41,899 nucleotides of DNA from an uncultured Ruminococcus sp. (GCA_902796545.1 CADBPF010000068.1:1-41899); one strand, 5' to 3'. Shown: positions 5,244-41,899, counted from the first letter of the stretch. Numbers and translations: made by a program. Notes: a model not told the origin generated them from the sequence alone.

Positions 5244-6360
5244 CACGCTCGGGCTCTATTTGCATATCCCGTTTTGCCTGCGCAAATGCGGGTACTGCGA
5301 TTTCTATTCCGTGACCGATCGGACCCGGACCGACGCCTTTGTCGATTCGCTCTGCGCGCAGATCCGCGGCGCGGCGCAAATCGCAAAAGAACCGGTCGAT
5401 ACCGTGTTTTTCGGCGGCGGCACGCCCTCGCTGCTTTCCGTAAAGCAGTTGGAGCGCGTGTTTTGCGCTCTGACGGCGTTTTCGATCGCGCCGGACGCGG
5501 AGATCAGCATGGAGGTCAATCCCGCCACGGCAAACGAGGCGGCTTTCCGCGCTTATCGCGCGCTCGGCGTCAACCGGTTGAGTATCGGGATGCAGTCGGC
5601 GTCGGACAGGGAGCTAAAATGGCTTTCCCGCGTCCATAGTGCCGCCGATACCGTGAAGACCGTGCGCGAACTGACGCGCGCGGGATTTGACAATTTCAAT
5701 CTCGATCTCATCTACGGCTTAAAGGAGCAAACGGCGCGGGATTTTGAAGCGTCGGTTTGCGCCGCGCTCGAGCTTTGCCCCACGCATCTCTCGCTTTACG
5801 CGCTTACCCTTTCCGAAACCGTGCCGCTGTATGCCGAGCGGGCGCGGCTTTCTCCGGACGAAGTGCAGGAAACGCAGTATCTGCGCGCCTGCGAGCGCTT
5901 GCGGGAAGCGGGCATGGCGCAGTACGAGATCTCCAATTTCGCTTCTCCCGGGTTTGCGTGCGCCCACAACCTGAAATACTGGACGCGCGCGCCCTATCTC
6001 GGCTTCGGACCGGGCGCGAGTTCGTTTTATTCCGGGCGCCGCTTCGAGATCGCGCCGGATCTGGACGCCTATTGCGGCAAGCCGCCCGGGCTCGAAGAGC
6101 TTTTGGAACGGGCGCCCGCGCTCTCGGAAACGGATGCGCTGACCGAGGAGCTGATCCTCGCTTTGCGCCTGACCCGCGGCATCGACGCGCGCGCCTACGC
6201 CGGAAAACTCAAAGACGGACGCCGGTTTTTATCCGAGCTCGACGGGCTGATACCAGCGGGCTTTGCGGCGGAAACGGACGGGCGCGTCCGGCTGACGCAA
6301 AACGGCTTTTTGGTCTCAAACGAGATCCTTGCGCGCTTACTTTGCGCCGCGGGACTTTGA
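5236..6360 (+). CDS. hemW: Radical SAM family heme chaperone HemW / oxygen-independent coproporphyrinogen oxidase-like
   Basis: [17 protein letters not shown] (CxxxCxxC radical-SAM motif), [15 protein letters not shown]. Conserved lepA-hemW(hemN) adjacency. Confidence 0.88.
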
Positions 6361-6370
6361 AAGGAACGCT

Positions 6371-7510
6371 ATGAAACGAAAACTGATCGCGCTGTTGTTG
6401 TGCGTCTGCACCGTGCTGTGCGCGCTTTGCGCCTGCGCAAATCAAACGGAAGACGGCGTGCCGCAGGGAAAAATGCGCGCCAAAAGCGCCGCCTTGGGTC
6501 TTTGGATCTTCTATCCGGAGGCCTGGTCGGTCGTGGAAAACGACACGGTTTTGAAGATCGCGTCCTACGAAGAGACCACGCTTTCCAATCCGGACGCGTA
6601 CGTGTATGCGCAGGACGCCTCCGTTTCGCTTGCCAATCTCGTGGTCGTGCGGCTCGATACCGGCAAGGAGGGCGCGCAAGACCTGGACGAATACGCAAAC
6701 GAGGTCTATCCTGCGCTTTTTTCGGACGATTACGTGTTCGATACCACTCCCGAGCGCCCCGCCGCGGGCACGACGCCGCGCGTGATCTATACCTATCACA
6801 AGCTGGACGCGCAAGGCAAGGTGCAATACCGCTTCTGTCAATGCCTCGCCGAGCATTCCGGCGCGATCTACGCCGTGACCTTCACCGCGACGGACAATCT
6901 CTTTTCGCAGTTCTTGTCCGAGGCAAAGGAAGCGATGCTTTCTTTGACCTTCGAGTTTGTTCCGGACGGGGAGAACACGCCGATTGCCAATCCCGCGTCC
7001 GCGCCCGTTATGACGGGCACGATCCCGCAAAAGGCGGGATACGCCGTCCTCACGAACGACGGCGTGCCGTATTACCTGTATTATCCGGAAAACGAGTTTA
7101 CCCCGGTGGCGGAATCCGGTTTTCTGGCGCTGGAAGCGAGCGATCACGCGAGCGTCAGCGTCAGCACCTTCGATCGGGGAAGCACGGAGTTTACCAATCT
7201 CAGCGCGTATCTCGATGAACGGTATTTCGTCGAGTTCGATAAGCTTTACGGCTCCCATACCGAATTGAGCCGCCGCACGGAGGAGCTTGCCGACCGCAGT
7301 CTGTGCGAGGTGGAGTTTACGAGCGTGATCTCGGGCGAAGCGTACCGCTTCCGGCTTTCGCTGTTGTACCACGCCTCGATTTTGGAGGGCCCGATCAGCC
7401 TCGTGACCGGGGATCTGATCTGTCTTGTGCTTTATACCGCGCGCGACGCGGACTACGAAACGCACCTTGCGTCGGTGGATGCGATCGTGCGGGAACTGAG
7501 CTTCAAATAA
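6371..7510 (+). CDS. Putative lipoprotein of unknown function
   Basis: ATG at 6371 gives MKRKLIALLLCVCTVLCALCACANQ (signal peptide plus lipobox-like LCAC). The ORF-track start at 6329 overlaps the hemW end and lacks a signal peptide. I recognise no family. Confidence 0.6.
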   Translation: MKRKLIALLLCVCTVLCALCACANQTEDGVPQGKMRAKSAALGLWIFYPEAWSVVENDTVLKIASYEETTLSNPDAYVYAQDASVSLANLVVVRLDTGKEGAQDLDEYANEVYPALFSDDYVFDTTPERPAAGTTPRVIYTYHKLDAQGKVQYRFCQCLAEHSGAIYAVTFTATDNLFSQFLSEAKEAMLSLTFEFVPDGENTPIANPASAPVMTGTIPQKAGYAVLTNDGVPYYLYYPENEFTPVAESGFLALEASDHASVSVSTFDRGSTEFTNLSAYLDERYFVEFDKLYGSHTELSRRTEELADRSLCEVEFTSVISGEAYRFRLSLLYHASILEGPISLVTGDLICLVLYTARDADYETHLASVDAIVRELSFK

Positions 7511-21462: not shown

Positions 21463-22371
21463 ATGGGCTCGATTGCGGACTTTTTTTCCTATCTCGGCAC
21501 CCGGCTTTCCACGATCAGCGTCATCGACGTGATCGATATTCTGATCGTGTCCGTCCTGTTCTACTACGTGATCGTCTTTTTCAGAGACCGCCGGGCGGGG
21601 AAGCTTGCCGTCGGCGTGCTCTTTTTACTGCTCGCGCTGCTGATCAGCACCTTATTGGAAATGCGCGCCACGCAGAGCATTCTGGAAACGATCGTCGGCG
21701 TCGGGGTTTTGGCGCTCATCATCATTTTCCAGCCGGAACTGCGGACGATGCTTGAAAAAATGGGGCGCAATTCGCTGTCCGGCTTAAACCGGCTCGTGGA
21801 TCTGCGCACGGACGATGAAAAACTGAAAGTCTTAAACGAGGTCTGTCTTGCCGCGGGAGAGCTTTCGCAGAGCAAAACGGGCGCGCTGATCGTCATCGAG
21901 CGCAAAACGAAGCTCGGCGACGAGATCCGCACCGGCACCGAACTCAACGCGGACGTTTCCGCGCCCCTGATCCGCAATATCTTCTATAACAAAGCGCCTC
22001 TGCACGACGGCGCCATGATCCTGCGCGGCGGCCGCATCTACGCCGGCGGCTGCTTTCTGCCGCTTTCGGCAAGCACGGAGATCGACCGCAGACTCGGCAC
22101 GCGCCACCGCGCGGCGCTCGGCGTATCCGAGATCAGCGACGCGGTCGTGGTCGTCGTGTCCGAGGAAACGGGCGGCATTTCGATCGCGATCGACGGGAAG
22201 CTCTATCAGGGATTCGATAAATACACCCTGCAAAACCGGCTGTTGCAGATCTTTGAGCTGGACGTGAGCCGCTCGCGCGCGCTCGCCCGCCGCAAGAAAG
22301 AGAAAAAGAACGCGAAAACCGAGGACGCACCGGACGCACCGCAACAGGAGGACGACCGTGAAGGTCTTTGA
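21463..22371 (+). CDS. cdaA: Diadenylate cyclase CdaA (DacA)
   Basis: Three N-terminal TM helices, then a DAC domain with DGAMILRG and GTRHRAALGVSE motifs. GAGGAGG RBS. Confidence 0.95.
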   Translation: MGSIADFFSYLGTRLSTISVIDVIDILIVSVLFYYVIVFFRDRRAGKLAVGVLFLLLALLISTLLEMRATQSILETIVGVGVLALIIIFQPELRTMLEKMGRNSLSGLNRLVDLRTDDEKLKVLNEVCLAAGELSQSKTGALIVIERKTKLGDEIRTGTELNADVSAPLIRNIFYNKAPLHDGAMILRGGRIYAGGCFLPLSASTEIDRRLGTRHRAALGVSEISDAVVVVVSEETGGISIAIDGKLYQGFDKYTLQNRLLQIFELDVSRSRALARRKKEKKNAKTEDAPDAPQQEDDREGL

Positions 22372-23620
22372 TCGTATCGAAACCGATCCGGAAAAAAAGC
22401 GCCGCGAAAGCCGCTTGTTCCGGCCGCTGATCGCGGTCTTGTCTTTGATTTTGGGCTTTGCCTTCTGGTCTTACGTCGCGATCTCCGACAACCCGAACAA
22501 CACGCGCATCTTTTCCTCGATCCCCGTGAAATTCGAGAATCTCAACGTGTCCGGCTATACGATCCTGTCCGGTTCGGACGTGAACGCGGACGTGACGATC
22601 TCCGGCCGGCGCAACGAATTGAGCCGGCTTGACGACGAGGACTTTTCCCTCTCCGTGGATCTGTCCGACGTGACCGTCGCCGGGAACTACTTAAAAGAAG
22701 TGCGCGTCAGCGGTCTGCCCTCCGGGATGGAGATGATCACCTGCTCGCCGCGCTATATCTCCGTGGATATCGACGTGGAAAAGACCGTTTCCGTGCCGGT
22801 TTTGGAGCCGGAGGAAACCTATACGCTCAAAGAGGGCGTGCGCATCCGCCGCGCCTTCTCGCAGGATTCCGTATCCGTCAAAGGCCCGCAGCAGGTGCTG
22901 GATACCATCGTGGGCATCCGCCCCGTGCTGGACTTGGGCGAGCTGACGGAGGACGTCGTCAAGACCGTGAATCTGCGCTTTGTGGACGCGAACGGCAACG
23001 AGGTCACCAACCGTTACCTCGTTCCGGCGCAGAACACGTTGAGCATCAGCTATACGCTGTATAAAGAAAAGACCGTGCCCTTGATGCTCAACGTCGAGAC
23101 CGTGTTGAGCTCGGAGCGCGTCACGCAGACCGTCACGCCCTCCACGATCACGGTCCAGGGTCCGCCCAATCAGATCGACGATCTCGAACAGATCTGGGCG
23201 CGCACCGTGTCCACCGCGGAGATGAGAAGCGAGGAGAACACCTATACCGGCACGGTGATCCTGCCCGAGGGACTGGAAGCGGCGGGCACGACCACCTATA
23301 CCGCGATCGCGCGTTTGAGCGGCGTCAACTCCAAGACCGTCACTCTGCCGTTAGATGCTTCCTACGTGGAGATCACGGGTCTTGCAAGCGGACTTTCCTT
23401 GAATTTGGAAAGCGAGAGCGTGAACGTGACCGTGCGCGCGGCAAACGGCAATTTGAGCCGCGTGAGCGCGTCAAGCCTCGGCGCCGTACTCGATCTTTCG
23501 GGCTATACCGAGGCGGGCTCTTATACCGTCGATCTGGAATTCAACGTGTCCGACGAATGGAAAAACGTGTTCTACGTCGTCGGTACGGCAAGCGTGGATC
23601 TGACGCTTGGCGCCTCATGA
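22358..23620 (+). CDS. cdaR: CdaA regulatory protein CdaR (YbbR-domain repeats), GTG start
   Basis: Single N-terminal TM helix followed by repeated YbbR-like beta-rich modules. Conserved position directly after cdaA. AGGAGG RBS upstream of the GTG. Confidence 0.85.
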   Translation: MKVFDRIETDPEKKRRESRLFRPLIAVLSLILGFAFWSYVAISDNPNNTRIFSSIPVKFENLNVSGYTILSGSDVNADVTISGRRNELSRLDDEDFSLSVDLSDVTVAGNYLKEVRVSGLPSGMEMITCSPRYISVDIDVEKTVSVPVLEPEETYTLKEGVRIRRAFSQDSVSVKGPQQVLDTIVGIRPVLDLGELTEDVVKTVNLRFVDANGNEVTNRYLVPAQNTLSISYTLYKEKTVPLMLNVETVLSSERVTQTVTPSTITVQGPPNQIDDLEQIWARTVSTAEMRSEENTYTGTVILPEGLEAAGTTTYTAIARLSGVNSKTVTLPLDASYVEITGLASGLSLNLESESVNVTVRAANGNLSRVSASSLGAVLDLSGYTEAGSYTVDLEFNVSDEWKNVFYVVGTASVDLTLGAS

Positions 23621-24644: not shown

Positions 24645-24830
24645 ATGGCAGTACCGAAGAGAAAAACCTCGGCACAGAGGAAACATAAACGTCGTTCCAG
24701 CGTCTGGAAGCTGTCTGCTCCCACCCTGACGGCTTGCCCGAAATGCGGGGAAAAGATCTTGCCCCATCACGTATGCGAGCATTGCGGCAATTATGATGGC
24801 AGGGAAGTCATCGCCGTCGAGGAAAAATAA
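24645..24830 (+). CDS. rpmF: 50S ribosomal protein L32
   Basis: MAVPKRKTSAQRKHKRRS, plus CxxC...CxxC zinc ribbon (CPKCGEK...CEHCG). Confidence 0.97.
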   Translation: MAVPKRKTSAQRKHKRRSSVWKLSAPTLTACPKCGEKILPHHVCEHCGNYDGREVIAVEEK

Positions 24831-28280: not shown

Positions 28281-29423
28281 ATGGCGACCGTTGCGTTTTT
28301 TGAGTGCTTGGACTATGCCGACCGCGCCGCCGTGCGCCGCGCGATCGACGGGATCTTTGAAGCCGCCGGCGGCGCGGAAGCGATTTTGGGACACGGCCGC
28401 CGCGTCGTCGTCAAACCGAACCTTGTGATGAAAAAAGAGCCGGAGGGCGGCGCGACCACGCACCCCGCGATCCTGGAAGCGGTGTTGGAAGTGGTTTTGC
28501 AATATACGAGCGACGTTTGCGTGGCGGAATGCCCCGGCGGGCTCGGAAACGACGCGGTGCTGGAATCGATCTATCGCGTGACCGGCATCCGCGCGGTCTG
28601 CGAAAAGCTCGGCGTGCCGATCGCGCGCGACCGCACAGCGATCAAGCTCGATTTCCCGCAAGGATACGCCGCGCACAGTCTGGATCTTTTGAAGGTCATG
28701 GCGGAGGCGGAGGTCTTTCTCAACCTCGGCAAATTGAAAAGCCACTCGCTCACCGGATTTACCGGCTGCGCCAAAAACCTCTACGGCGCGATCCCCGGGC
28801 TGTTTAAGGTGGAATACCACGCGCGCTATTCCGAGATCCGCACCTTCTGCGAGGTGGTGCTGGATCTGAATCGCGCGCTGCGCCCCGCGCTTTCCATTTT
28901 GGACGCCGTGATCGGCATGGAGGGCAACGGCCCGACCGGCGGGGAGCCGAAATTCATCGGCGGTATTTTAGGCTCCGTCGATCCCTTTGCCGTGGACGCG
29001 ATCGGCGCAAAGCTGATCGGCATCACCCAAGAAGAGGACGCGCCGATCCTGCGCGCCGCCGAAGAGCACGGGCTTTTGCCCGAAACCATAAACGTGGTCG
29101 GCGACGACTATCAAGCGCATATCCAAAGCGATTTTCGCCTGGCGGACGCCCAGCGCTTCAACGTGCTGCGCGATATGCCGAATCTCTTCGGCGGCAGGCT
29201 CAAACGCTTTTTGGAGCCGCACCCGGTGATCTCGAAACGCTGCGTCGGCTGCGGAGAGTGCGCACGCGTCTGCCCCGGCAAGGCGATCGAAATGAAAACG
29301 GTAAACGGCGCCGCCCGCCGCGCCCGGATCCGGAAACGCCAGTGCATCCGCTGTTATTGCTGTCAGGAGCTCTGTCCGCAAAAAGCGGTGGATACGAAAC
29401 AAAAGAGTTTTTTGAAATTGTGA
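28281..29423 (+). CDS. DUF362 domain protein with C-terminal 2x[4Fe-4S] ferredoxin domain
   Basis: DUF362-like core (VVKPNLV, LKSHSLTGFTGCAKNLYG, GMEGNGP). Two CxxCxxCxxxCP motifs (CVGCGECARVCP, CIRCYCCQELCP). Confidence 0.75.
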   Translation: MATVAFFECLDYADRAAVRRAIDGIFEAAGGAEAILGHGRRVVVKPNLVMKKEPEGGATTHPAILEAVLEVVLQYTSDVCVAECPGGLGNDAVLESIYRVTGIRAVCEKLGVPIARDRTAIKLDFPQGYAAHSLDLLKVMAEAEVFLNLGKLKSHSLTGFTGCAKNLYGAIPGLFKVEYHARYSEIRTFCEVVLDLNRALRPALSILDAVIGMEGNGPTGGEPKFIGGILGSVDPFAVDAIGAKLIGITQEEDAPILRAAEEHGLLPETINVVGDDYQAHIQSDFRLADAQRFNVLRDMPNLFGGRLKRFLEPHPVISKRCVGCGECARVCPGKAIEMKTVNGAARRARIRKRQCIRCYCCQELCPQKAVDTKQKSFLKL

Positions 29424-30280
29424 TGCAAACGCTCACCCTGCGCGCAAGCGCCAAGCTCAATCTCACGCTCGCGGTCGGAGAACGGATGCCCGACGGGTAT
29501 CATCCGATCCGTTCGGTCATGCAGAAAATCTCCCTGTTCGATACCCTGGAATTTACGCGGTCCGAAGAAACGCGCATGGTCTCGGATTTGAGTTATCTGC
29601 CCTCGGACGAGCGCAATCTGTGCGTGCGCGCGGTAAACGAATACCGCCGCCTTACGGGAAAGGACGCGAATCTTTCGATCCGCGTGCAAAAAAAGATCCC
29701 GGTCGGCGCGGGGCTCGGCGGCGGAAGCGCCGACGCGGCGGCGACGATCCGCGCGCTGGAAGCCTTTTTCGGGGCGCTGGACGAGGATACGCGTCAACGT
29801 CTCGCGCGATCGCTCGGCGCGGACGTGCCGTTTTGCCTGCATCCCTGCAACACGGCGTTATGCGAGGGCGTGGGCGAGCGCATCACCCCGGTCGAAAACC
29901 GGATCAAAAACGCGCATCTCTTGCTTTATAAAGAAGGGCGCAAAGCCTCCACCGCCCGCGTGTACGCGGCGTTTGACGCGCTGGATCCCGTTAGCTCGGA
30001 TCCGACGGACGCCGTGATCGGCGCGCTTGAGCGCGGCGACGCGGACGCGCTTTGCGATTGCCTGTTCAACGACCTTACGCGCGCCCTGGAAAGCCTGGGG
30101 CAGCCGGTCGGGGCGATCCGGAAGCGGATGACGGATCTCGGCGCGCGCGGCGCGCTGATGAGCGGCGCGGGGCCCACGGTGTACGGCGTTTTTACAGACG
30201 TAAACGCGTTGGAGCAGGCGCGGGCAAAGCTTTCCGGAAGCCCGGACGCGTTTTGCGCGCCGGCGCATTTTTTGCTCTGA
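29423..30280 (+). CDS. ispE: 4-diphosphocytidyl-2-C-methyl-D-erythritol kinase
   Basis: ATG at 29423 gives MQTLTLRASAKLNLTLAVGERMPDGYHPIRSVMQ. GHMP kinase motif KKIPVGAGLGGGSADAAA. The ORF-track start at 29258 lies inside the previous gene. Confidence 0.92.
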   Translation: MQTLTLRASAKLNLTLAVGERMPDGYHPIRSVMQKISLFDTLEFTRSEETRMVSDLSYLPSDERNLCVRAVNEYRRLTGKDANLSIRVQKKIPVGAGLGGGSADAAATIRALEAFFGALDEDTRQRLARSLGADVPFCLHPCNTALCEGVGERITPVENRIKNAHLLLYKEGRKASTARVYAAFDALDPVSSDPTDAVIGALERGDADALCDCLFNDLTRALESLGQPVGAIRKRMTDLGARGALMSGAGPTVYGVFTDVNALEQARAKLSGSPDAFCAPAHFLL

Positions 30281-30309: not shown

Positions 30310-30350
30310 CCCTCCTTTTGCCGGGAAACCCGGCGCAAAGGAGGGTTTTT
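30310..30350 (+). terminator. Rho-independent terminator after ispE; its 3' arm contains the spoIIR Shine-Dalgarno sequence
   Basis: CCCTCCTTTTGCCGGG (30310-30325), AAA loop, then CCCGGCGCAAAGGAGGG (30329-30345). That is 9 bp + 6 bp around a small internal loop, followed by TTTTT and immediately by the ATG at 30351. Confidence 0.7.
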
Positions 30351-30980
30351 ATGTTCGATGCCAAAACCGCGTTCCGGAAAAAAGCGTGCGCGGTGTTCGC
30401 GTTTGTCTGCGCGGCGTTTTTATTGGTCAGCGTGTTTTTGCCCTTGAAGGGCAGGGCGCGGATCACCTCGTCCGTTCTGCGCTTTCACGTGGTCGCCGAT
30501 TCCGACGCGCCCGAGGATCAGGAGCTCAAAGAGGATCTGCGCGCTTCGGTGCTGGACTGGACAAAGGAGGGGCTGAGCGCCTGCCGCAGCGTCACGCAGG
30601 CGCAGGCGTATCTGGAGGAAAACCGCCCCGTGCTGGAGCGGAAGATCGACGCGTTTTTATCGGAACGCGGCGCGCCGTACGGCGCCTTGCTTTTCATCGG
30701 CACGGAATACCACGCCGCGAAGACCTACGACGAGATCACCCTGCCGCAGGGGGAGTATCTCACCTTCCGGATCACGCTCGGCCGCGGAGAGGGGCATAAT
30801 TTCTTTTGCGTGCTGTTCCCGCCGATCTGTCAGAACGCCGCGCGCCGGGAAACGAACGGCGAGGTCTTGATGCAATACGGTTTTTCCTCAGACGAGGTGC
30901 GTCGGTTGGAGGACGGCGGCGGGGTGAAATACCGCTTTTTCCTCTGGGATCTGATCTGCGGGCTTTTCGAAGATCGGTAG
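30351..30980 (+). CDS. spoIIR: Stage II sporulation protein R
   Basis: Signal/TM segment followed by LRFHVVADSDAPEDQELKEDLRASVL (SpoIIR signature, LR-HV-A-SD), ending in the conserved FPP..C region. Confidence 0.88.
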   Translation: MFDAKTAFRKKACAVFAFVCAAFLLVSVFLPLKGRARITSSVLRFHVVADSDAPEDQELKEDLRASVLDWTKEGLSACRSVTQAQAYLEENRPVLERKIDAFLSERGAPYGALLFIGTEYHAAKTYDEITLPQGEYLTFRITLGRGEGHNFFCVLFPPICQNAARRETNGEVLMQYGFSSDEVRRLEDGGGVKYRFFLWDLICGLFEDR

Positions 30981-31908: not shown

Positions 31909-33468
31909 GTGAAAAACTGGAAAAAGCACCTTCTTTTGATCCTGGCGTTTTGCCTTGTGCTCTTCGCTTTCGCGTCCTGCAAACCCGGGAATCAGCGCAA
32001 TTACGAAGAGGACGAAGACGATTACGTCGAGGTCGAAGCAGACGACGACAACGAGGATACTTACGAGTTTGCGCGCTCTTTGATCCCCGAAGTCGATTTT
32101 GAGGGCCGTGAATTCCGGATCCTGATCTGCAAGAGCGTGAGCAATTTCGACGTGCAGAACGGCGACCTTTCGCGTAACGTCGTCGCCAAGGGACAGATCG
32201 GCGTGGAGATCAACGACCAGGTCTATAACCGCAACCTGTATCTCGAAAAGAAGCTCGGCATCACGATCCGCGCCTATGAAAAACCCTTCCGCGCCGTGGC
32301 GGACGAGTTGAAGGCGAGCATTCTCGCTATGGACGACCGCTACGATATCTGCTACACCCGTCTGGACGATCTGACCCCGCTTGCGAGCGAGGGCTTGCTC
32401 GTGAACCTGTACGAACTGGAAGAATACGGCGTGGACTTCTCGCGTCCCTGGTGGGATCAGAACTCCATCGACGAATTGTCGATCCAGGGCGAATTGTTCT
32501 TCGCGGTGTCCGACGGAGATATCGTCGATAAGCAGACCACCATGGCCTGTATGTTCAATAAGTCTCTGATGGACGAGCATCGCATCGAATATCCTTACGA
32601 GACCGCTTCGGCGGGCGAGTGGACGATCGATCTGATGATGGACATGGCAAACCAGGTCAAGAAGGACGCGGACGGCAACGGCATTTATAACGCGTCCGAC
32701 GTCTGGGGCGTGCTCACCGAGTACGACTCCGCCACCTGTTTCTACTACGCCTTCGGCGGCTACGTGACCACGAAGAACAACGCCGACGAGCCGGTGCTCG
32801 CCATGCAGAACCCGGCGGCGCAGATCGCGATCGACAAGGCCCTGTCCGTGATGCAGAATAACGACGTCGTTTATAAGGCCGAACAGATCACGGGCGGTAC
32901 GGACGGGATCTGGGTCACCGCGAGTAATATGTTCGTCAACAACCAGGCGCTGTTCCGGATCACGAACCTGACCACCGTGGAACGCTGGCGGAACATGAAG
33001 GCGGACTTCGGGATCCTGCCCATGCCCAAGCTCAACACCGAACAGAAGAATTACGTTCATCTGTGCAAGAACGGCGCGACCGGCGTTTGCGTGCCGAACA
33101 CCAACGAGAATTTAGACTTCACGGCGATCTGTCTGGAAGCGTTCGTTTCCTGCTCGCGCTACACCTTGCGCAGCGCCTACTACGAAACGACCCTCGAGGG
33201 CATGGTCTCCCGCGATTTAGAGACCCCGAAGATGCTCGATATCATCTTCTCGACCCGCGCGTTCGACCTCGGTTACATCTTCAATTTCGGGCACGACGGC
33301 TCGATCTCCCAGGGTGAAACGAACGGCACGGGCATCGGGTATCTGTTGATGAAGCTTGCCCGCTCCAACAGCACCGCGTTCGCCTCCTCCTACGACTCGA
33401 TCAAGGATAAGGCGCAGGCGCAGATCGACGATATGCTTTCCACCTTGGAGCGCAGCAGAGAAGTCTGA
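31909..33468 (+). CDS. Extracellular solute-binding lipoprotein (large ABC-type sugar-binding family), GTG start
   Basis: MKNWKKHLLLILAFCLVLFAFASC lipoprotein signal with lipobox FASC. The 519-aa size and composition fit family-1 SBPs. No permease or ATPase genes are adjacent. Confidence 0.7.
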   Translation: MKNWKKHLLLILAFCLVLFAFASCKPGNQRNYEEDEDDYVEVEADDDNEDTYEFARSLIPEVDFEGREFRILICKSVSNFDVQNGDLSRNVVAKGQIGVEINDQVYNRNLYLEKKLGITIRAYEKPFRAVADELKASILAMDDRYDICYTRLDDLTPLASEGLLVNLYELEEYGVDFSRPWWDQNSIDELSIQGELFFAVSDGDIVDKQTTMACMFNKSLMDEHRIEYPYETASAGEWTIDLMMDMANQVKKDADGNGIYNASDVWGVLTEYDSATCFYYAFGGYVTTKNNADEPVLAMQNPAAQIAIDKALSVMQNNDVVYKAEQITGGTDGIWVTASNMFVNNQALFRITNLTTVERWRNMKADFGILPMPKLNTEQKNYVHLCKNGATGVCVPNTNENLDFTAICLEAFVSCSRYTLRSAYYETTLEGMVSRDLETPKMLDIIFSTRAFDLGYIFNFGHDGSISQGETNGTGIGYLLMKLARSNSTAFASSYDSIKDKAQAQIDDMLSTLERSREV

Positions 33469-33477
33469 ACCGACAAG

Positions 33478-33696
33478 TGAATAACGCGAGGAACGGGCAG
33501 CCGGATCTGATTTTCCACAGCTACAGAGAGGCCGGGCGCTGAGAGCGGCCGCTGTGTCGGATCACGGCATTTCACCCGGGAGCGGCGCGGAGGATAAGTC
33601 CGCGACGGGCGCCCGCCGAAACCGGGAAATGAAGAAAAAATAAGGGTGGTACCGCGATCATTCGCCCCTGTATGCAAATACGGGGGCGTTTTTTTA
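33478..33696 (+). promoter_or_regulatory. T-box riboswitch leader, Phe specifier (UUC), controlling pheST
   Basis: AGAGAG element near 33525. Candidate specifier TTC followed by A at 33571-33574. Canonical T-box sequence GGGTGGTACCGCG at 33644-33656. 10-bp terminator hairpin 33663-33688 followed by T7 (33689-33695), 19 nt before the pheS ATG. Confidence 0.88.
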
Positions 33697-37258: not shown

Positions 37259-37678
37259 ATGGCATATTCCAGACTCAAAGAACGGGAGACGGTTTTCCGT
37301 CTGCTTTTTATCGCGGAACACCAGCCGGAGCTCGGCGCGGACGAGCTTTTGGCGTTGAGCGAAGAAAGCGAGGAGACCGCGCTTCGCACGCCGTACGTAA
37401 CGGAGACCCTGCGCGGCGCGATGGACTTTGCGCCGCGCGCGACAAAGCTTGCGGCGAGCGCCTCGCGCGACTGGCGCGTGGAACGGATGTCGCCGGTACT
37501 GCGGGCTTTATTGAAGCTTTCGCTTTACGAGATGCTGGAAAACGACGCGATCCCCGTTAAGGTCGCGGCAAACGAGGCGGTCGAACTCTGTAAGCGTTAC
37601 GAGGACGAAAAAGCCGCCCGCTTCCTAAACGGGATCCTCGGCACGCTGTCCGCGGGCGGGCAAAACGGAAAACAATGA
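37259..37678 (+). CDS. nusB: Transcription antitermination factor NusB
   Basis: RETVFRLLF ..., LRALLKLSLYEML, AIPVKVAANEAVELCKRY, ARFLNGILG. The ATG at 37259 is 9 nt after AAAGGA. A GTG at 37253 is an alternative start. Confidence 0.88.
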   Translation: MAYSRLKERETVFRLLFIAEHQPELGADELLALSEESEETALRTPYVTETLRGAMDFAPRATKLAASASRDWRVERMSPVLRALLKLSLYEMLENDAIPVKVAANEAVELCKRYEDEKAARFLNGILGTLSAGGQNGKQ

Positions 37679-38598
37679 ACTACTATCTCGGGATCGATAC
37701 CAGTAACTACACCACCTCGCTTGCCGCGATCCCGCAAAACGAGGGCGAGGGGGTTTGTGTGCGCACGCTTTTGCAGGCACCGGTAAACAGCGTCGGTCTG
37801 CGGCAAAGCGACGCGCATTTTTTGCATACGAAGCATTTGCCGGAACTCTCCTGCCGCCTGCGGGAGGCCCTGCCCCGAAACGCGCGCTGCGTCGGCGTGG
37901 GCGTTTCGGTCAAACCGCGCCCGGAGGAAGGCTCGTATATGCCCTGCTTTCTCGCGGGGGTCTCCGCCGCGCACGCGGCGGCGCTTGCCGCGGGCGTGCC
38001 GCTTTATGAGACCACGCACCAGGAGGGGCATCTGAAAAGCGCGCTCTACGGCGCGCCGGATTTTCCTTGCGTCGAGCGCTTTTTCGCGATCCATCTGTCC
38101 GGCGGCACGCTGGAATGTCTGGAGGTTTGCAAGCGCGTCGGCGCCTTTGGAGTCCGCGTCGCGTCCAAAACGCTCGATTTAACGCTCGGGCAGCTGATCG
38201 ACCGCGTCGGCGTGGCGATGGGCTTTCCTTTCCCCTGCGGCAAAGCGCTGGATGAGCTTGCGTTTTCCCATCGGCGGAGCTTTTCGGTGAAGATCCCCGA
38301 AAAAAGCGAAGGGATCAACTTATCGGGCTTTGAAAACCGCGCAAAGGAGCTGATCTTAAGCGCGCAAAAAGAAGACGTTGCGGCGTATCTCTTCTGCGTG
38401 GCGGAGCAGAGTATCCGCGCGCTGTGCCGGATCGCAAATACCGGAGATACTCCGGTGCTGATCTGCGGCGGCGTCGGCGCGAGCAAGACCCTGCGGCGCG
38501 CTCTGGCGGGCGAAAGGTACTATTTCACCGCGCCCGAATGGGCGACGGACAATGCGCTCGGCGTTGCGCTGATCGCCAAAGAGAAAGGAACGGTTTGA
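37675..38598 (+). CDS. Divergent TsaD/Kae1 (peptidase M22 / ASKHA-fold) family paralog, function unknown
   Basis: LGIDTSNYTTS (compare GIETSCDET in TsaD), HQEGH (HxxxH metal site), CGGVGASKTLR (compare GGVAAN), TDNALGVA (compare DNAAMIA). Only 307 aa and clearly divergent from canonical TsaD. Confidence 0.65.
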   Translation: MNYYLGIDTSNYTTSLAAIPQNEGEGVCVRTLLQAPVNSVGLRQSDAHFLHTKHLPELSCRLREALPRNARCVGVGVSVKPRPEEGSYMPCFLAGVSAAHAAALAAGVPLYETTHQEGHLKSALYGAPDFPCVERFFAIHLSGGTLECLEVCKRVGAFGVRVASKTLDLTLGQLIDRVGVAMGFPFPCGKALDELAFSHRRSFSVKIPEKSEGINLSGFENRAKELILSAQKEDVAAYLFCVAEQSIRALCRIANTGDTPVLICGGVGASKTLRRALAGERYYFTAPEWATDNALGVALIAKEKGTV

Positions 38599-38600
38599 AT

Positions 38601-39812
38601 ATGGAGCGGCAGATCTATACCGTGACGCAGGTCAACGAATTCGTGAAGGAACTGCTCGAGGGCTTTCCGGCGTTCCGCAATCTTTGCGTGCGCGGCGAGA
38701 TCTCGAATTTTACGAATCATTATAAAAGCGGGCATCTGTATTTCACGCTGAAAGACGAAACGGGCGTGTTAAGATCCGTGATGTTCAAATACAGCGCGCA
38801 GCGTCTTACCTTCGAGCCGCAAAACGGCATGAAGGTGCTCGCCACGGGGCATCTTTCCTCCTTCGTGCGCGACGGGCAGTATCAGCTTTATTGCGACGCG
38901 CTCGAGCCGGACGGGATCGGCGCTTTGTATCTTGCCTACGAGCAGCTCAAAGAAAAGCTGCGCGCCGAAGGGCTCTTTGACGAAGCGCACAAGCTGCCGC
39001 TTCCGAAATGCCCTTTGAGAGTCGGGATCATCACCTCTCCGACCGGCGCCGCCGTGCGGGATATGATCCAGGTTTCCGGCAGAAGATTCCCGATCGCCGA
39101 ATTATTTCTGTGCCCCGTGCTCGTGCAGGGAGAGGGCGCCGCGCCGCAATTAAAACGCGCCGTGCGCTTTTTCAACGAGTCGTTTCCCGTGGACGTGATC
39201 CTGATCGGCCGCGGCGGCGGGTCCTTAGAGGATCTCTGGGCGTTCAACGACGAGGGTCTGGCGCGGGAGATCTACGCTTCGCACATCCCGGTCGTCAGCG
39301 CCGTGGGGCACGAAACGGACTTCACGATCTGCGATTTCGTATCCGATCTGCGCGCCCCCACGCCGAGCGCCGCGGCGGAGCTCGCCCTGCCGGAAAAAAC
39401 GGAAATGCAGCAGAAGATCCAAAACGTGCAAACGCTCATGCAAAAAACGCTGCTTGCCCGCATCGCGGCGTACCGCGAGCGCGTAAACGGCTTTGCGGCA
39501 AAGCCGTGTCTGCAAAAGCCGGAGGGCTTTTTGGAAGAACGGCAAATGCTGCTCGACCGCTTGTCGGACAGCTTTTTCAAAAGCGCGGACATCCAACTCG
39601 AGCGCAAGCAAACCGCCTTGCGCACGCTTGCGGGGAAACTGGACGCGTTGAGCCCGCTGGGCGTGTTTTCGCGCGGGTACGGCGCGATCCTGACCACCGA
39701 CGGGCGCGCGGTGCGCTCGATTGCGGAATTGTCCGTGGACGATCAAGTCACACTCAAAACCACCGGCGGAGAAGCCGATGCGAAGATCGTATCGATCAGA
39801 AAGGGATCCTGA
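38601..39812 (+). CDS. xseA: Exodeoxyribonuclease VII large subunit
   Basis: ATG at 38601 gives MERQIYTVTQVNEFVKELLE. OB-fold, GIITSPTGAAVRDM, LIGRGGGSLEDLWAFNDE, SAVGHETDFT. The ORF-track start at 38424 lies inside the preceding gene. Confidence 0.95.
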   Translation: MERQIYTVTQVNEFVKELLEGFPAFRNLCVRGEISNFTNHYKSGHLYFTLKDETGVLRSVMFKYSAQRLTFEPQNGMKVLATGHLSSFVRDGQYQLYCDALEPDGIGALYLAYEQLKEKLRAEGLFDEAHKLPLPKCPLRVGIITSPTGAAVRDMIQVSGRRFPIAELFLCPVLVQGEGAAPQLKRAVRFFNESFPVDVILIGRGGGSLEDLWAFNDEGLAREIYASHIPVVSAVGHETDFTICDFVSDLRAPTPSAAAELALPEKTEMQQKIQNVQTLMQKTLLARIAAYRERVNGFAAKPCLQKPEGFLEERQMLLDRLSDSFFKSADIQLERKQTALRTLAGKLDALSPLGVFSRGYGAILTTDGRAVRSIAELSVDDQVTLKTTGGEADAKIVSIRKGS

Positions 39813-40057
39813 TGGCAGAAACCGAAAAAACCAACGCAAGCTTTGAAGCGTCGCTGAAACGTTTAGAGGAGATCACGCGCCGCCTCGAACAGACGGACAC
39901 GCCCCTGGAGGAGTCGCTCAAGCTCTTCGAGGAGGGCACGGCGCTCGTGCGCACGCTCACCGGCGCGCTCGACGATGCGACTAGACGCGTTTCGATTCTG
40001 AAAAACGCGCTCGAGGGAAGCGGCGCGACCGAGCCCTTTGACGCGGATCGGGCGTAA
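39812..40057 (+). CDS. xseB: Exodeoxyribonuclease VII small subunit
   Basis: ATG at 39812 (TGATG junction with xseA) gives MAETEKTNASFEASLKRLEEITRRLEQTDTPLEESLKLFEEG. This is the 3' part of the long ORF-track frame 39008-40057. Confidence 0.92.
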   Translation: MAETEKTNASFEASLKRLEEITRRLEQTDTPLEESLKLFEEGTALVRTLTGALDDATRRVSILKNALEGSGATEPFDADRA

Positions 40058-40060
40058 GAC

Positions 40061-40089
40061 TTGCAAAGCTTGCATAGTTATGCTATACT
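40061..40089 (+). promoter_or_regulatory. Near-consensus extended -10 sigma-A promoter (TTGCAA-17 nt-TGcTATACT) driving the non-coding region
   Basis: -35 TTGCAA at 40061-40066, 17-nt spacer, TG at 40081-40082, -10 TATACT at 40084-40089. Starts 4 nt after the xseB stop. Predicted TSS is around 40094-40097. Confidence 0.65.
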
Positions 40090-40095
40090 ATGCAC

Positions 40096-40757
40096 GATGG
40101 CGCAGTATCCTAGTGAAAGCGGCCCTTTTTGAAGACGGGCCTAAAAATCCGTCAAAGGGCACATCGATGAAGCGTTTTGTGCCTGCTTCGTACGCCCAGT
40201 ATGGGGTGGGTGCTGAACGATTGGACTTGCGGGCATCCGCAACGGCATGCGAACAATGACCCGTCTGTCCTTGGAGGCCTTATTGCGTGGGCTGGTCCGA
40301 AAGCCTACGGGTAAGGGGTAAACCTGTCACGCGGTGCGTTTGACGCTGTGGGCAGCGTAGCCTGCCTTGCGTGGCGGCGGCGGATTTCGGAACCACGGCG
40401 CTCGTCTCCCGGCCGGAGACGCGCGGCGATTGCCGGATGAAACCGCAGCTGCAAAAGAGGCTGAGAAAAGGATCCGCTTTCGGAGGAAATCTCCTAGGCT
40501 GTTTTTTTAAAAAGGCATAAAAGGGATTGCAGTGCGCACTCACAGGCAATCGAGTCCCGGTATTCGGCGACGGTATCGGCTCCGCTTTCAAGGGGAACCG
40601 CTCCTTCGGTGACGGGGAGTAGCGGATGGGGAAATGCCAACTCGACCTTAAGCCGCAACGTTTACTTTTTATGCTGCCATCATCTTTCGTGAACGTGCCT
40701 TTTCGTTTTGAATGGCGGGAAGGCTTCCTTTTTCCCAAAATCAGACCAACGCAGATC
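40096..40757 (+). ncRNA. ole: Large structured non-coding RNA, probable OLE (ornate, large, extremophilic) RNA class; ends approximate
   Basis: About 660 nt with no ORF showing coding-like composition or an RBS. It has a dedicated promoter and many GC-rich hairpins (40122-40160, 40351-40366, 40404-40420, 40424-40435, 40525-40551, 40658-40696). Long-range pairings include GAAAGCGG 40115-40122 with CCGCTTTC 40474-40481. It lies between xseB and a 4-TM protein plus dxs, which is the known OLE/oapA context. The class assignment rests on synteny, size and structure, not on an alignment. Confidence 0.6.
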
Positions 40758-40767
40758 GGAGGATAGC

Positions 40768-41469
40768 TTGGATCACTCAGACCGAAGTCGGGGCGGTGCG
40801 AAAAAGCGCGCCGCCGCGCCGACCGAACCGGATCAGAACAAGATCGCGTCAAAAGAGAAGAAACCGCGCAAGCGCAAGGCGCGCGTGGATTGGAAATGGA
40901 CGCTGATCGTTTTCTTGCTTTCGCTTGTCATCTCCGTTGCGCTCGGGCTCTTGTCGAGCACGCTGGAAACGCTGGATCTGTTCTACGGGTTTTTGATCCT
41001 CTTATTCGTGATCGCGCTCGGCGTGGCGTTCGATTTTATCGGCATCGCCGTCGCCACGGCGGACGTCGGCGGCTTCCATTCCATGGCGTCCCGCGGGAAC
41101 CCGATGGGCGCAAAGGGCGCGTGGCTCATTAAAAACGCAAACAAGGTCTACAGCTTCTGCAACGACGTGATCGGCGATATTTCCGGGATCCTCTCCGGCG
41201 CGATCGGCGCCACGATCGCGCTTAAGCTGTTTATTTCCGAGTCCGCTCTCGGGTTTTGGGGCAATCTCATCGTCACCGCGGCGATCTCTGCGGTCACGGT
41301 CGGCGGCAAGGCGCTGTTCAAGGGCGTCGCGCTCGAGTACAGTCAGGAGACCGTCGCGTTTTTGTCCCGCGTGCTCTGCTTTTTCTCGTTTTCAGGACGG
41401 ACGGCGCAGGAAAAGGACCGCGCGGACGCGCAGGAAAAAAAGAATAAAACGGATAAGGATCGGACATGA
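40768..41469 (+). CDS. oapA: Small 4-TM membrane protein with basic N-terminal tail, probable OLE-associated protein OapA; start uncertain
   Basis: Four predicted TM helices ([74 protein letters not shown]). Immediately upstream of dxs with an ATGA overlap. The TTG at 40768 follows GGAGGA (40758-40763), and third-position GC rises from that point. Alternative starts are TTG 40708 (no RBS) and GTG 40885. Confidence 0.6.
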
Positions 41470-41899
41470 ACGGATATTCGCTTTCTCAGCTTCAGGCGAT
41501 GTCGCTTGACGAGGCGCGCGATCTGGCGCGGGAGATCCGGCAGTTTCTGGTGGAGAACGTATCCCTCACCGGCGGCCATCTCGCGTCGAATCTCGGCATC
41601 GTGGAGATCTCGCTTGCGCTGTTGCGCCTGTTCGATCCCCCCAAAGACGCGCTGATCTACGACACCGGCCACCAGAGTTACGTGCATAAGCTGCTCACCG
41701 GGCGCCTCGGGGACTTTTCCACCCTGCGCCAGTACGGCGGCATTTCCGGATTTCCCAAACGCTCGGAGAGCGAATACGACGCCTTCGGCGCGGGCCACAG
41801 CGGCACCGCCGTCAGCGCGGCATTGGGGATCCTGCGTGCGCGCGCTTTGAACGAAAAAGCGGAAAAGGCTTATACCGTCGCGATTTTGGGCGACGGTGC
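41466..41899 (+). CDS. dxs: 1-deoxy-D-xylulose-5-phosphate synthase, 3'-partial (runs off window)
   Basis: My own translation from the ATG at 41466: [80 protein letters not shown]...[12 protein letters not shown]. These are canonical Dxs N-terminal motifs. It is absent from the ORF track because there is no stop codon in the window. Confidence 0.93.

Follow-up and report, generated by a model that had tools for sequence, protein, structure and literature searches.

A full-length OLE RNA match paired with a predicted oapA gene in DNA from an uncultured Ruminococcus sp.

The ornate, large, extremophilic (OLE) RNAs are among the largest and best-conserved of those bacterial non-coding RNAs for which no biochemical activity is known. 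More than 2,800 OLE representatives have been catalogued, and full-length OLE RNAs are distinguished from shortened variants (PMC11332333). The OLE RNA gene (ole) of Halalkalibacterium (Bacillus) halodurans has a proximal promoter that increases the expression of OLE by more than 100-fold, and the 5′ ends of the RNA have been mapped to the start of helix P1; OLE has been documented as an abundant, stable, trans-acting component of a ribonucleoprotein (RNP), with a half-life of about 3 h (PMC3413148). Cryo-electron microscopy (cryo-EM) indicated that OLE may span the membrane as a dimer (PMC12286853). Here we describe the gap between xseB and oapA in 41,899 nucleotides (nt) of DNA from an uncultured Ruminococcus sp. 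(GCA_902796545.1, CADBPF010000068.1:1-41899; this whole stretch is called the window below), which an earlier note, made by reading the sequence alone, had taken for a probable OLE-class RNA gene. The analysis showed that positions 40081-40696 of the plus strand are almost certainly a full-length OLE RNA gene, which forms the standard ole-oapA pair with the gene downstream.

Identity and structure of the OLE RNA

The gap extends over 710 nt from the xseB stop codon (40055-40057) to the TTG start of oapA (40768). It is by far the longest intergenic stretch of the window, the runner-up being 177 nt upstream of pheS, in agreement with the earlier description of it as the only long non-coding stretch. 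The whole window was scanned against Rfam 15, as the earlier note had proposed for this region. The result showed a match to RF01071 (OLE) with a score of 443.2 bits (E-value 5e-127; gathering cut-off 50 bits) that covers model positions 1-616 of 616 and is not truncated. OLE was the sole Rfam match above the gathering score in the window, and a scan at a relaxed threshold returned nothing further in the gap. Compared with the RF01071 model, the RNA lacks 5 nt in one terminal loop, has 3 nt more in another and differs by a few single-base indels, and all helices are present. The functional core, bounded by the two strands of P1, is 586 nt long (about 40096-40681). The copy belongs to an already known RNA class and departs from it in minor details only; nothing was found that argues against its membership of the family.

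A full-length OLE was also found just upstream of the OapA homologue in 12 of the 12 other loci scanned, with scores of 404-491 bits, and these include the distant Paenibacillus flagellatus, Anaeromonas and Congzhengia. In the orthologous gap of closer relatives, where the earlier note had suggested looking, OLE was recovered at 425-443 bits together with compensatory base changes. The relatives with about 52-60% OapA identity are metagenome-assembled genomes (MAGs) of uncultured 'Clostridia bacterium', while three further loci, L081-L083, are near-identical 2-kb metagenome contigs.

The elements to which functions have been assigned in OLE RNAs are all retained in the window (Table 1). The A-rich loop of L4, the junctions J4a/5 and J6/7 and the L9.3 palindrome agree with the Rfam consensus and do not vary among the relatives, and the GGCC of the L9.3-type loop is kept in all of them. 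In the cryo-EM dimer, L4 makes four intermolecular A-A pairs, L9.3 forms a symmetric intermolecular kissing loop and J6/7 is the partner strand of a kink-turn (k-turn) (PMC12286853); the other k-turn strand is J4a/5, the proposed site of OapC (PMC9723947, PMC12286853). OapB binding requires a GNRA tetraloop plus a 1-nt bulge (PMC7936274), and the P13-type hairpin at 40557-40579, which has both, is the predicted OapB-binding element. The order of the GCGA and GUGA tetraloops in the two GNRA hairpins is the reverse of that in the Rfam consensus; structural work showed that loop identity within GNRA is tolerated.

J5/6 of the window reads AUU, not UUAA, and several other loci have AGU, AAU or AAA. 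On a drawing published in 2022, the AUU might break the OapC k-turn. This idea was dropped, as the k-turn seen by cryo-EM uses J6/7, which is conserved here. Among OLE RNAs, two main forms of the junction after P5 were observed. In one, P5 starts with U and closes with ...GGGAG, followed by UUAAGG; in the second, rarer form, to which the window belongs (40215-40222), P5 starts with C, closes with G and is followed by A(U/G/A)UGG. In four loci of Oscillospiraceae/Clostridiales (L017, L034, L051 and L053), a small additional hairpin, such as GGCGTTTTTCGCC or GGCAACTTATGCC, was found between P5 and P6, at a distance of about 60-100 nt downstream of the GGGCACATC motif; this hairpin is missing from the window and from most loci. 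In two other loci, L015 (5224-6068) and L076 (5336-6049), the full-model match spans 845 and 714 nt, respectively, compared to about 616 nt, showing that these OLE RNAs carry sizeable insertions.

When the RF01071 structure was transferred to the window, 145 of the 158 model pairs were canonical. Covariation was then counted on an alignment, A2, that holds the gap of the window and of seven relatives (eight sequences, one clade; MAFFT; mean column identity 87%), using the Rfam structure carried over from the cmscan alignment. In A2, 90.3% of the cells could pair, compared to 41-46% when the 3′ partners were slid by 1-3 columns, and 27 pairs showed changes on both sides, compared to 1-6 in the slid controls; none of 500 column shuffles reached the observed covariation. 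This covariation indicates that the OLE helices are under purifying selection. P7 and P8 are of full length, with helices of 17 and 13 pairs at A2 columns 233-271 and 279-312, respectively, and no helix-sized deletions. A 5-bp CCUAG/CUAGG helix is unchanged across the relatives.

The fold was also recovered without the Rfam structure. RNAalifold found most model helices, plus P1 and a hairpin after the RNA. The minimum free energy (MFE) structure of the single sequence again contained the model helices, together with P1, P2 and the P3-like helix. Positions 40096-40681 fold with an MFE of -241.3 kcal/mol (z = -3.15 relative to dinucleotide shuffles, 1 of 100 of which folds equally well), so that the dense structure remarked on in the earlier note is borne out by folding energy and backed by covariation. 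P1, P2 and the P3-like long-range helix are absent from the Rfam model and fit the description of P1-P3 in PMC12265935, from the text of which we infer their P numbers. Every cell of the terminal helix P1 is paired, and one of its pairs covaries (UA/CG/UG); the 5′ strand of P1 likely marks the 5′ end of the mature OLE RNA. In the P3-like helix, present in the MFE and centroid folds, 83.7% of the cells pair and three pairs have changed on both sides.

Transcript limits, partner gene and alternative explanations

A consensus scan of 39700-41600 found a single promoter-like site (0.5 expected by chance), which is the TTGCAA-17-TGcTATACT promoter named in the earlier note. The motif CTTGCAA-N17-TATGCTATA(A/C)T is conserved in 7 of the 7 related loci, and the spacer and the upstream flank vary. 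P1 begins 7 nt after the end of the -10 element, and transcription of ole is predicted to start at about 40094-40097. The earlier note had presented the promoter of its own as a special feature of this copy. This part did not hold: the ole gene of H. halodurans has one as well, and such a promoter is a trait of the family.

A terminator scan and folding both revealed a hairpin that starts directly after the end of the Rfam match. Its stem (GCCUUUUCG/CGGGAAGGC) does not change among the seven relatives, in contrast to the loop and the two flanks, which vary strongly. Many distant ole loci also have a hairpin at this offset, some of them with a U-tract. A U-tract follows it in the window and in L081-L083 only and is absent at the same position in L084-L091; most relatives have A/U-rich sequence there that is not a U-tract, which leaves the role of a terminator insecure. 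The hairpin is probably a terminator or a 3′-end stabilizer of OLE that would be read through for oapA. The invariance of the stem where the OLE stems covary, the saturation of its flanks with changes and the lack of a U-tract in most loci also allow another reading, in which the hairpin is no plain terminator but extends the OLE transcript by a functional element specific to this clade; this seems rather unlikely. Such an element could serve in protein binding or in processing, or could switch oapA translation by way of the CCUUUU strand.

No promoter-like site was detected by the consensus scan in the 43 nt between the 3′ hairpin and oapA, suggesting that oapA is cotranscribed with OLE and that oapA and the overlapping dxs are expressed by read-through or from upstream transcription. 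The short spacer, the lack of a separate promoter in it and the terminator-like hairpin before oapA are what would be expected if the gap were only a long cis-acting 5′ leader, such as a riboswitch or an attenuator, of the oapA-dxs mRNA and not a stand-alone RNA. However, no riboswitch or leader family matches the gap even at the relaxed threshold, P1 makes the RNA a closed, self-contained fold that ends upstream of the 3′ hairpin, and OLE is known as a stable RNP component that acts in trans (PMC3413148). A mere leader is thus very improbable, and the stand-alone OLE RNA is the preferred explanation.

The protein encoded directly downstream is identified from its sequence as OapA, a four-helix membrane protein, as the earlier note had implied for the four-transmembrane neighbour of the gap. 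The TTG start agrees with the N-termini of homologues (MDHSDRS.../MDTSP...). The motif CNDVIGD, invariant in 31 aligned homologues, holds D133-V-I-G-D137, the DxxxD that separates OapA from CNNM domains (PMC11332333). The protein is 36% identical over 170 amino acids (aa) (E-value 6e-24) to the OapA of Supplementary Table 4 in PMC12286853, the reference sequence having been machine-read from the supplement PDF. Helices at residues 42-66, 71-97, 124-156 and 160-190 in an AlphaFold2 model (pLDDT 70.7) accompany hydrophobic segments at about 40-69, 64-101, 134-156 and 160-178 on the Kyte-Doolittle scale. The top six fold matches in the PDB are CorB/CNNM proteins, with probabilities of 0.92-1.00 but weak statistics (E-value 0.02-1.4, TM-score 0.34-0.43); they include the archaeal CorB/CNNM structures 7m1t and 7m1u and the transmembrane (TM) domain of a bacterial CorC, 7cff, and 7M1U is also the Breaker laboratory's top match for predicted OapA. 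The protein itself had no Pfam, NCBIfam or PDB sequence match and no Pfam CNNM match at E ≤ 1e-3, and its identity was therefore set through homologues, motif, fold and context. No informative name is attached to any of its 567 homologues at E ≤ 1e-3, some of which have a weak CNNM (PF01595) match. The N-terminal tail of about 40 residues is modelled with low confidence, rich in Lys and Arg (15 in the first 43 residues) and longer than in most homologues.

If the gap were protein-coding, one of two open reading frames (ORFs) would have to be a real gene: a 73-aa frame on the plus strand (40038-40259) or a 190-aa frame on the minus strand (40280-40852). Both exist at the sizes listed in the earlier note, which had rightly given neither a ribosome-binding site: no GGAGG-type site lies within about 18 nt upstream of either start. 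Moreover, the longest open frame switches strand and phase among the relatives' loci, the substitutions are paired across helices and not codon-periodic, and the gap scores 443 bits as OLE, so a coding gap has next to no probability. The same note's term 'ORF-free' was loose wording in view of the two spurious ORFs, which it listed itself.

Some observations weigh against a fully typical, functional OLE locus. In the window, 13 of the 158 model pairs are non-canonical, and the cluster lacks ispA and folD, two common neighbours in H. halodurans; a TsaD-like gene between nusB and xseA, in the stretch of the cluster that holds folD in H. halodurans, is found in the whole clade. The cluster given in the earlier note is thus right for the nusB/xseA-xseB/dxs context, but ispA and folD are missing here. 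The non-canonical pairs and the two missing genes would suit a decaying, non-functional OLE relic, but this is hardly credible given the full-length match with every conserved block intact, a score inside the range of the other loci, helices maintained by compensatory changes in relatives at 60% OapA identity, an intact oapA with invariant motifs and a conserved promoter.

Genomic neighbourhood and other features of the window

Annotation with Pfam and NCBIfam gave the order pheS-pheT-nusB-(TsaD-like)-xseA-xseB-[gap]-membrane protein-dxs in the window, and the relatives have the order pheS-pheT-nusB-(TsaD-like)-xseA-xseB-[gap of about 710 nt]-oapA-dxs-tlyA-nadK-argR-recN-tyrS. The arrangement pheST-nusB-xseAB-ole-oapA-dxs-tlyA-nadK-argR-recN is the classic OLE neighbourhood. 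Upstream sequence was sufficient for this comparison in 58 loci. In 20 of them, an ispA-type DDLPxMD motif occurs no more than 1.3 kb upstream of OLE; in nine (the clade of the window plus L015), xseB is the direct neighbour of OLE; and in 29, neither is found, showing that the OLE neighbourhood is variable and that the xseB-adjacent arrangement is not unique. No polyprenyl synthase was found anywhere in the window, and oapB and oapC are not among the genes of this 42-kb stretch. The positions of the features of the locus are listed in Table 1.

Table 1. Positions of the OLE RNA, its structural elements and the adjoining genes and signals in the window
Feature	Position	Strand	Remarks
xseB	39812..40057	+	PF02609, TIGR01280; directly upstream of the gap
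Predicted sigma-70-type ole promoter	40061..40089	+	-35 TTGCAA (40061-40066), 17-nt spacer, extended -10 TGcTATACT (40081-40089)
OLE RNA gene, Rfam limits	40081..40696	+	First ~15 model positions overlap with the -10 element
P1, 5′ strand (GAUGGC)	40096..40101	+	Pairs with 40676-40681; RNAalifold, MFE
P3-like helix, 5′ strand (AAAGCGG.CCUUUU)	40116..40129	+	Pairs with 40466-40480
P4 hairpin with A-rich loop L4 (CCUAAAAAUCC)	40134..40153	+	Loop 40140-40150 identical to Rfam consensus
J4a/5 block CACAUCGAUGAAG	40160..40172	+	k-turn strand plus palindrome AUCGAU; identical to Rfam consensus, invariant
J6/7 block CUUGGAGG	40270..40277	+	GGAG matches Rfam consensus GUGGAG, invariant in relatives
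Self-complementary CCGGCCGG	40409..40416	+	Tip of long P9-branch hairpin, L9.3-type; Rfam loop uGGCCa
P3-like helix, 3′ strand (AAAAGG..CCGCUUU)	40466..40480	+	Pairs with 40116-40129
P13-type hairpin, GNRA loop GCGA (40567-40570), one bulged U	40557..40579	+	Helix 95% paired
P14.1-type hairpin, GNRA loop GUGA (40609-40612), bulged U	40600..40620	+	Two covarying pairs CG/UA
P1, 3′ strand (GCCAUC)	40676..40681	+	Pairs with 40096-40101; RNAalifold, MFE
3′ hairpin	40697..40734	+	11-bp stem GCCUUUUCGUU...GGCGGGAAGGC (40697-40724), ΔG -13.9 kcal/mol, then UUCCUUUUUC
Shine-Dalgarno sequence of oapA, GGAGGA	40758..40763	+	Same place in relatives
Predicted oapA	40768..41469	+	TTG start, 233 aa, DxxxD at D133-D137; 71 nt after end of Rfam match
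dxs, 5′ part	41466..41899	+	PF13292 (6e-58), TIGR00204; overlaps oapA stop, continues beyond window end

The G+C content of the gap is 0.551, compared to 0.593 for the whole window, which places it at about the 10th percentile among 710-nt windows. The drop seen in the earlier note is therefore real but modest: the OLE RNA as a whole has 56% G+C, and its middle, at 0.62, equals its surroundings.

The TsaD-like gene (37675-38598, plus strand) encodes a divergent 307-aa member of the TsaD/Kae1 family, which scored 53.8 bits with the Pfam TsaD model and 72-79 bits with the NCBIfam TsaD models, against cut-offs of 208-296 for the latter. It retains the HxxGH motif (HQEGH), and the gene is kept at the same position in L084-L091. 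Just upstream of pheS, a T-box leader match was found at 33480-33672 (plus strand) that covers the full model (1-219) with 65.4 bits (E-value 3.9e-12), below the Rfam gathering score of 93; the match probably represents a divergent Phe T-box that would govern pheST. Another T-box leader, this one above the threshold (104.5 bits), was observed in Candidatus Apopatosoma intestinale about 3 kb downstream of oapA (L002, 9675-9911, plus strand).

Elsewhere in the window, an intergenic gap of 298 nt is only apparent because rpmF (L32, 61 aa, PF01783) sits inside it at 24645-24830 (plus strand), 3′ of yceD; this gene is missed by ORF lists that use a high length cut-off. Two long plus-strand ORFs stand out in a housekeeping block that is otherwise annotated throughout: one of 393 aa (6329-7510), with no Pfam family at E ≤ 1e-5, and one of 519 aa (31909-33468), with no Pfam family at E ≤ 1e-3. 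SpoIIR (30318-30980), CdaA-YbbR (21463-23620) and a GHMP kinase, possibly IspE (29258-30280), are also encoded. The presence of these proteins points to an endospore-forming host of the Bacillota, and dxs next to oapA makes it appear that the host uses the methylerythritol phosphate (MEP) pathway. Together with the T-box-like pheS leader and the closest OapA homologues (60% identity), which come from 'Clostridia bacterium' MAGs, these genes fit an uncultured spore-forming bacterium of the Clostridia type.

Comparison with known OLE systems and other large RNAs

Published work on H. halodurans and Clostridium acetobutylicum suggests how the locus may operate. OLE would be transcribed from its own promoter as an abundant, stable RNA, and the oapA-dxs message would arise by partial read-through of the 3′ hairpin. 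Two OLE RNAs may dimerize through the A-A pairs of L4 and the GGCC kissing loop of L9.3, and dimers of OapA would hold the RNA in or at the membrane. By the same analogy, OapB would sit on the GNRA-plus-bulge hairpin and OapC on the k-turn formed by J4a/5 and J6/7, and the resulting RNP may help the cell against stress, for example from alcohols, cold, excess Mg2+ or poor carbon sources.

The locus adds one full-length OLE RNA of 56% G+C from what appears to be an uncultured Clostridia lineage, a modest gain for work on alignments and structure. Its close relatives give clean compensatory changes, including those in P1 and in the P3-like long-range helix that lie outside the Rfam model. No departure in architecture, partner gene or context was found that would raise a new question.

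Like ROOL, GOLLD and the raiA motif, OLE is a large, highly structured non-coding RNA that is able to homo-oligomerize (PMC12286853) and whose biochemistry is unknown. The architectures, genomic contexts and partners of those RNAs are different, and no Rfam match to any of the three was found in the window. The predicted OapA resembles CNNM proteins (MpfA, CorB) in its four hydrophobic helices, and its best structural matches, although weakly scored, are the TM domains of CorB/CNNM; unlike these proteins, it has no CBS or CorC domains.

The OLE RNA of the window is like those of H. halodurans and C. acetobutylicum in its full-length model match and its helix order. It shares with known OLE RNAs L4 (CUAAAAAU), J4a/5 (AUCGAUGAAG), the GGAG of J6/7, the GGCC of L9.3 and two GNRA hairpins with a bulged U, as well as a predicted proximal promoter, oapA directly downstream and the nusB-xseA-xseB...dxs-tlyA-nadK-argR-recN neighbourhood. 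Unlike in H. halodurans, there is no ispA between xseB and ole and no folD, and the TsaD-like gene lies inside the cluster instead. The host also differs from both H. halodurans and C. acetobutylicum in that it appears to belong to an uncultured gut or environmental Clostridia lineage. In this respect the window is like OLE variants 1 (TANB77) and 2 (RF39), which belong to the same family and come from uncultured gut-associated Bacillota (PMC11332333). However, variant 1 has shortened P7-P9 and no OapB site, and variant 2 is without P7 and P8 (PMC11332333), whereas the OLE RNA of the window keeps P7, P8 and both bulged GNRA hairpins and is therefore of the full-length type.

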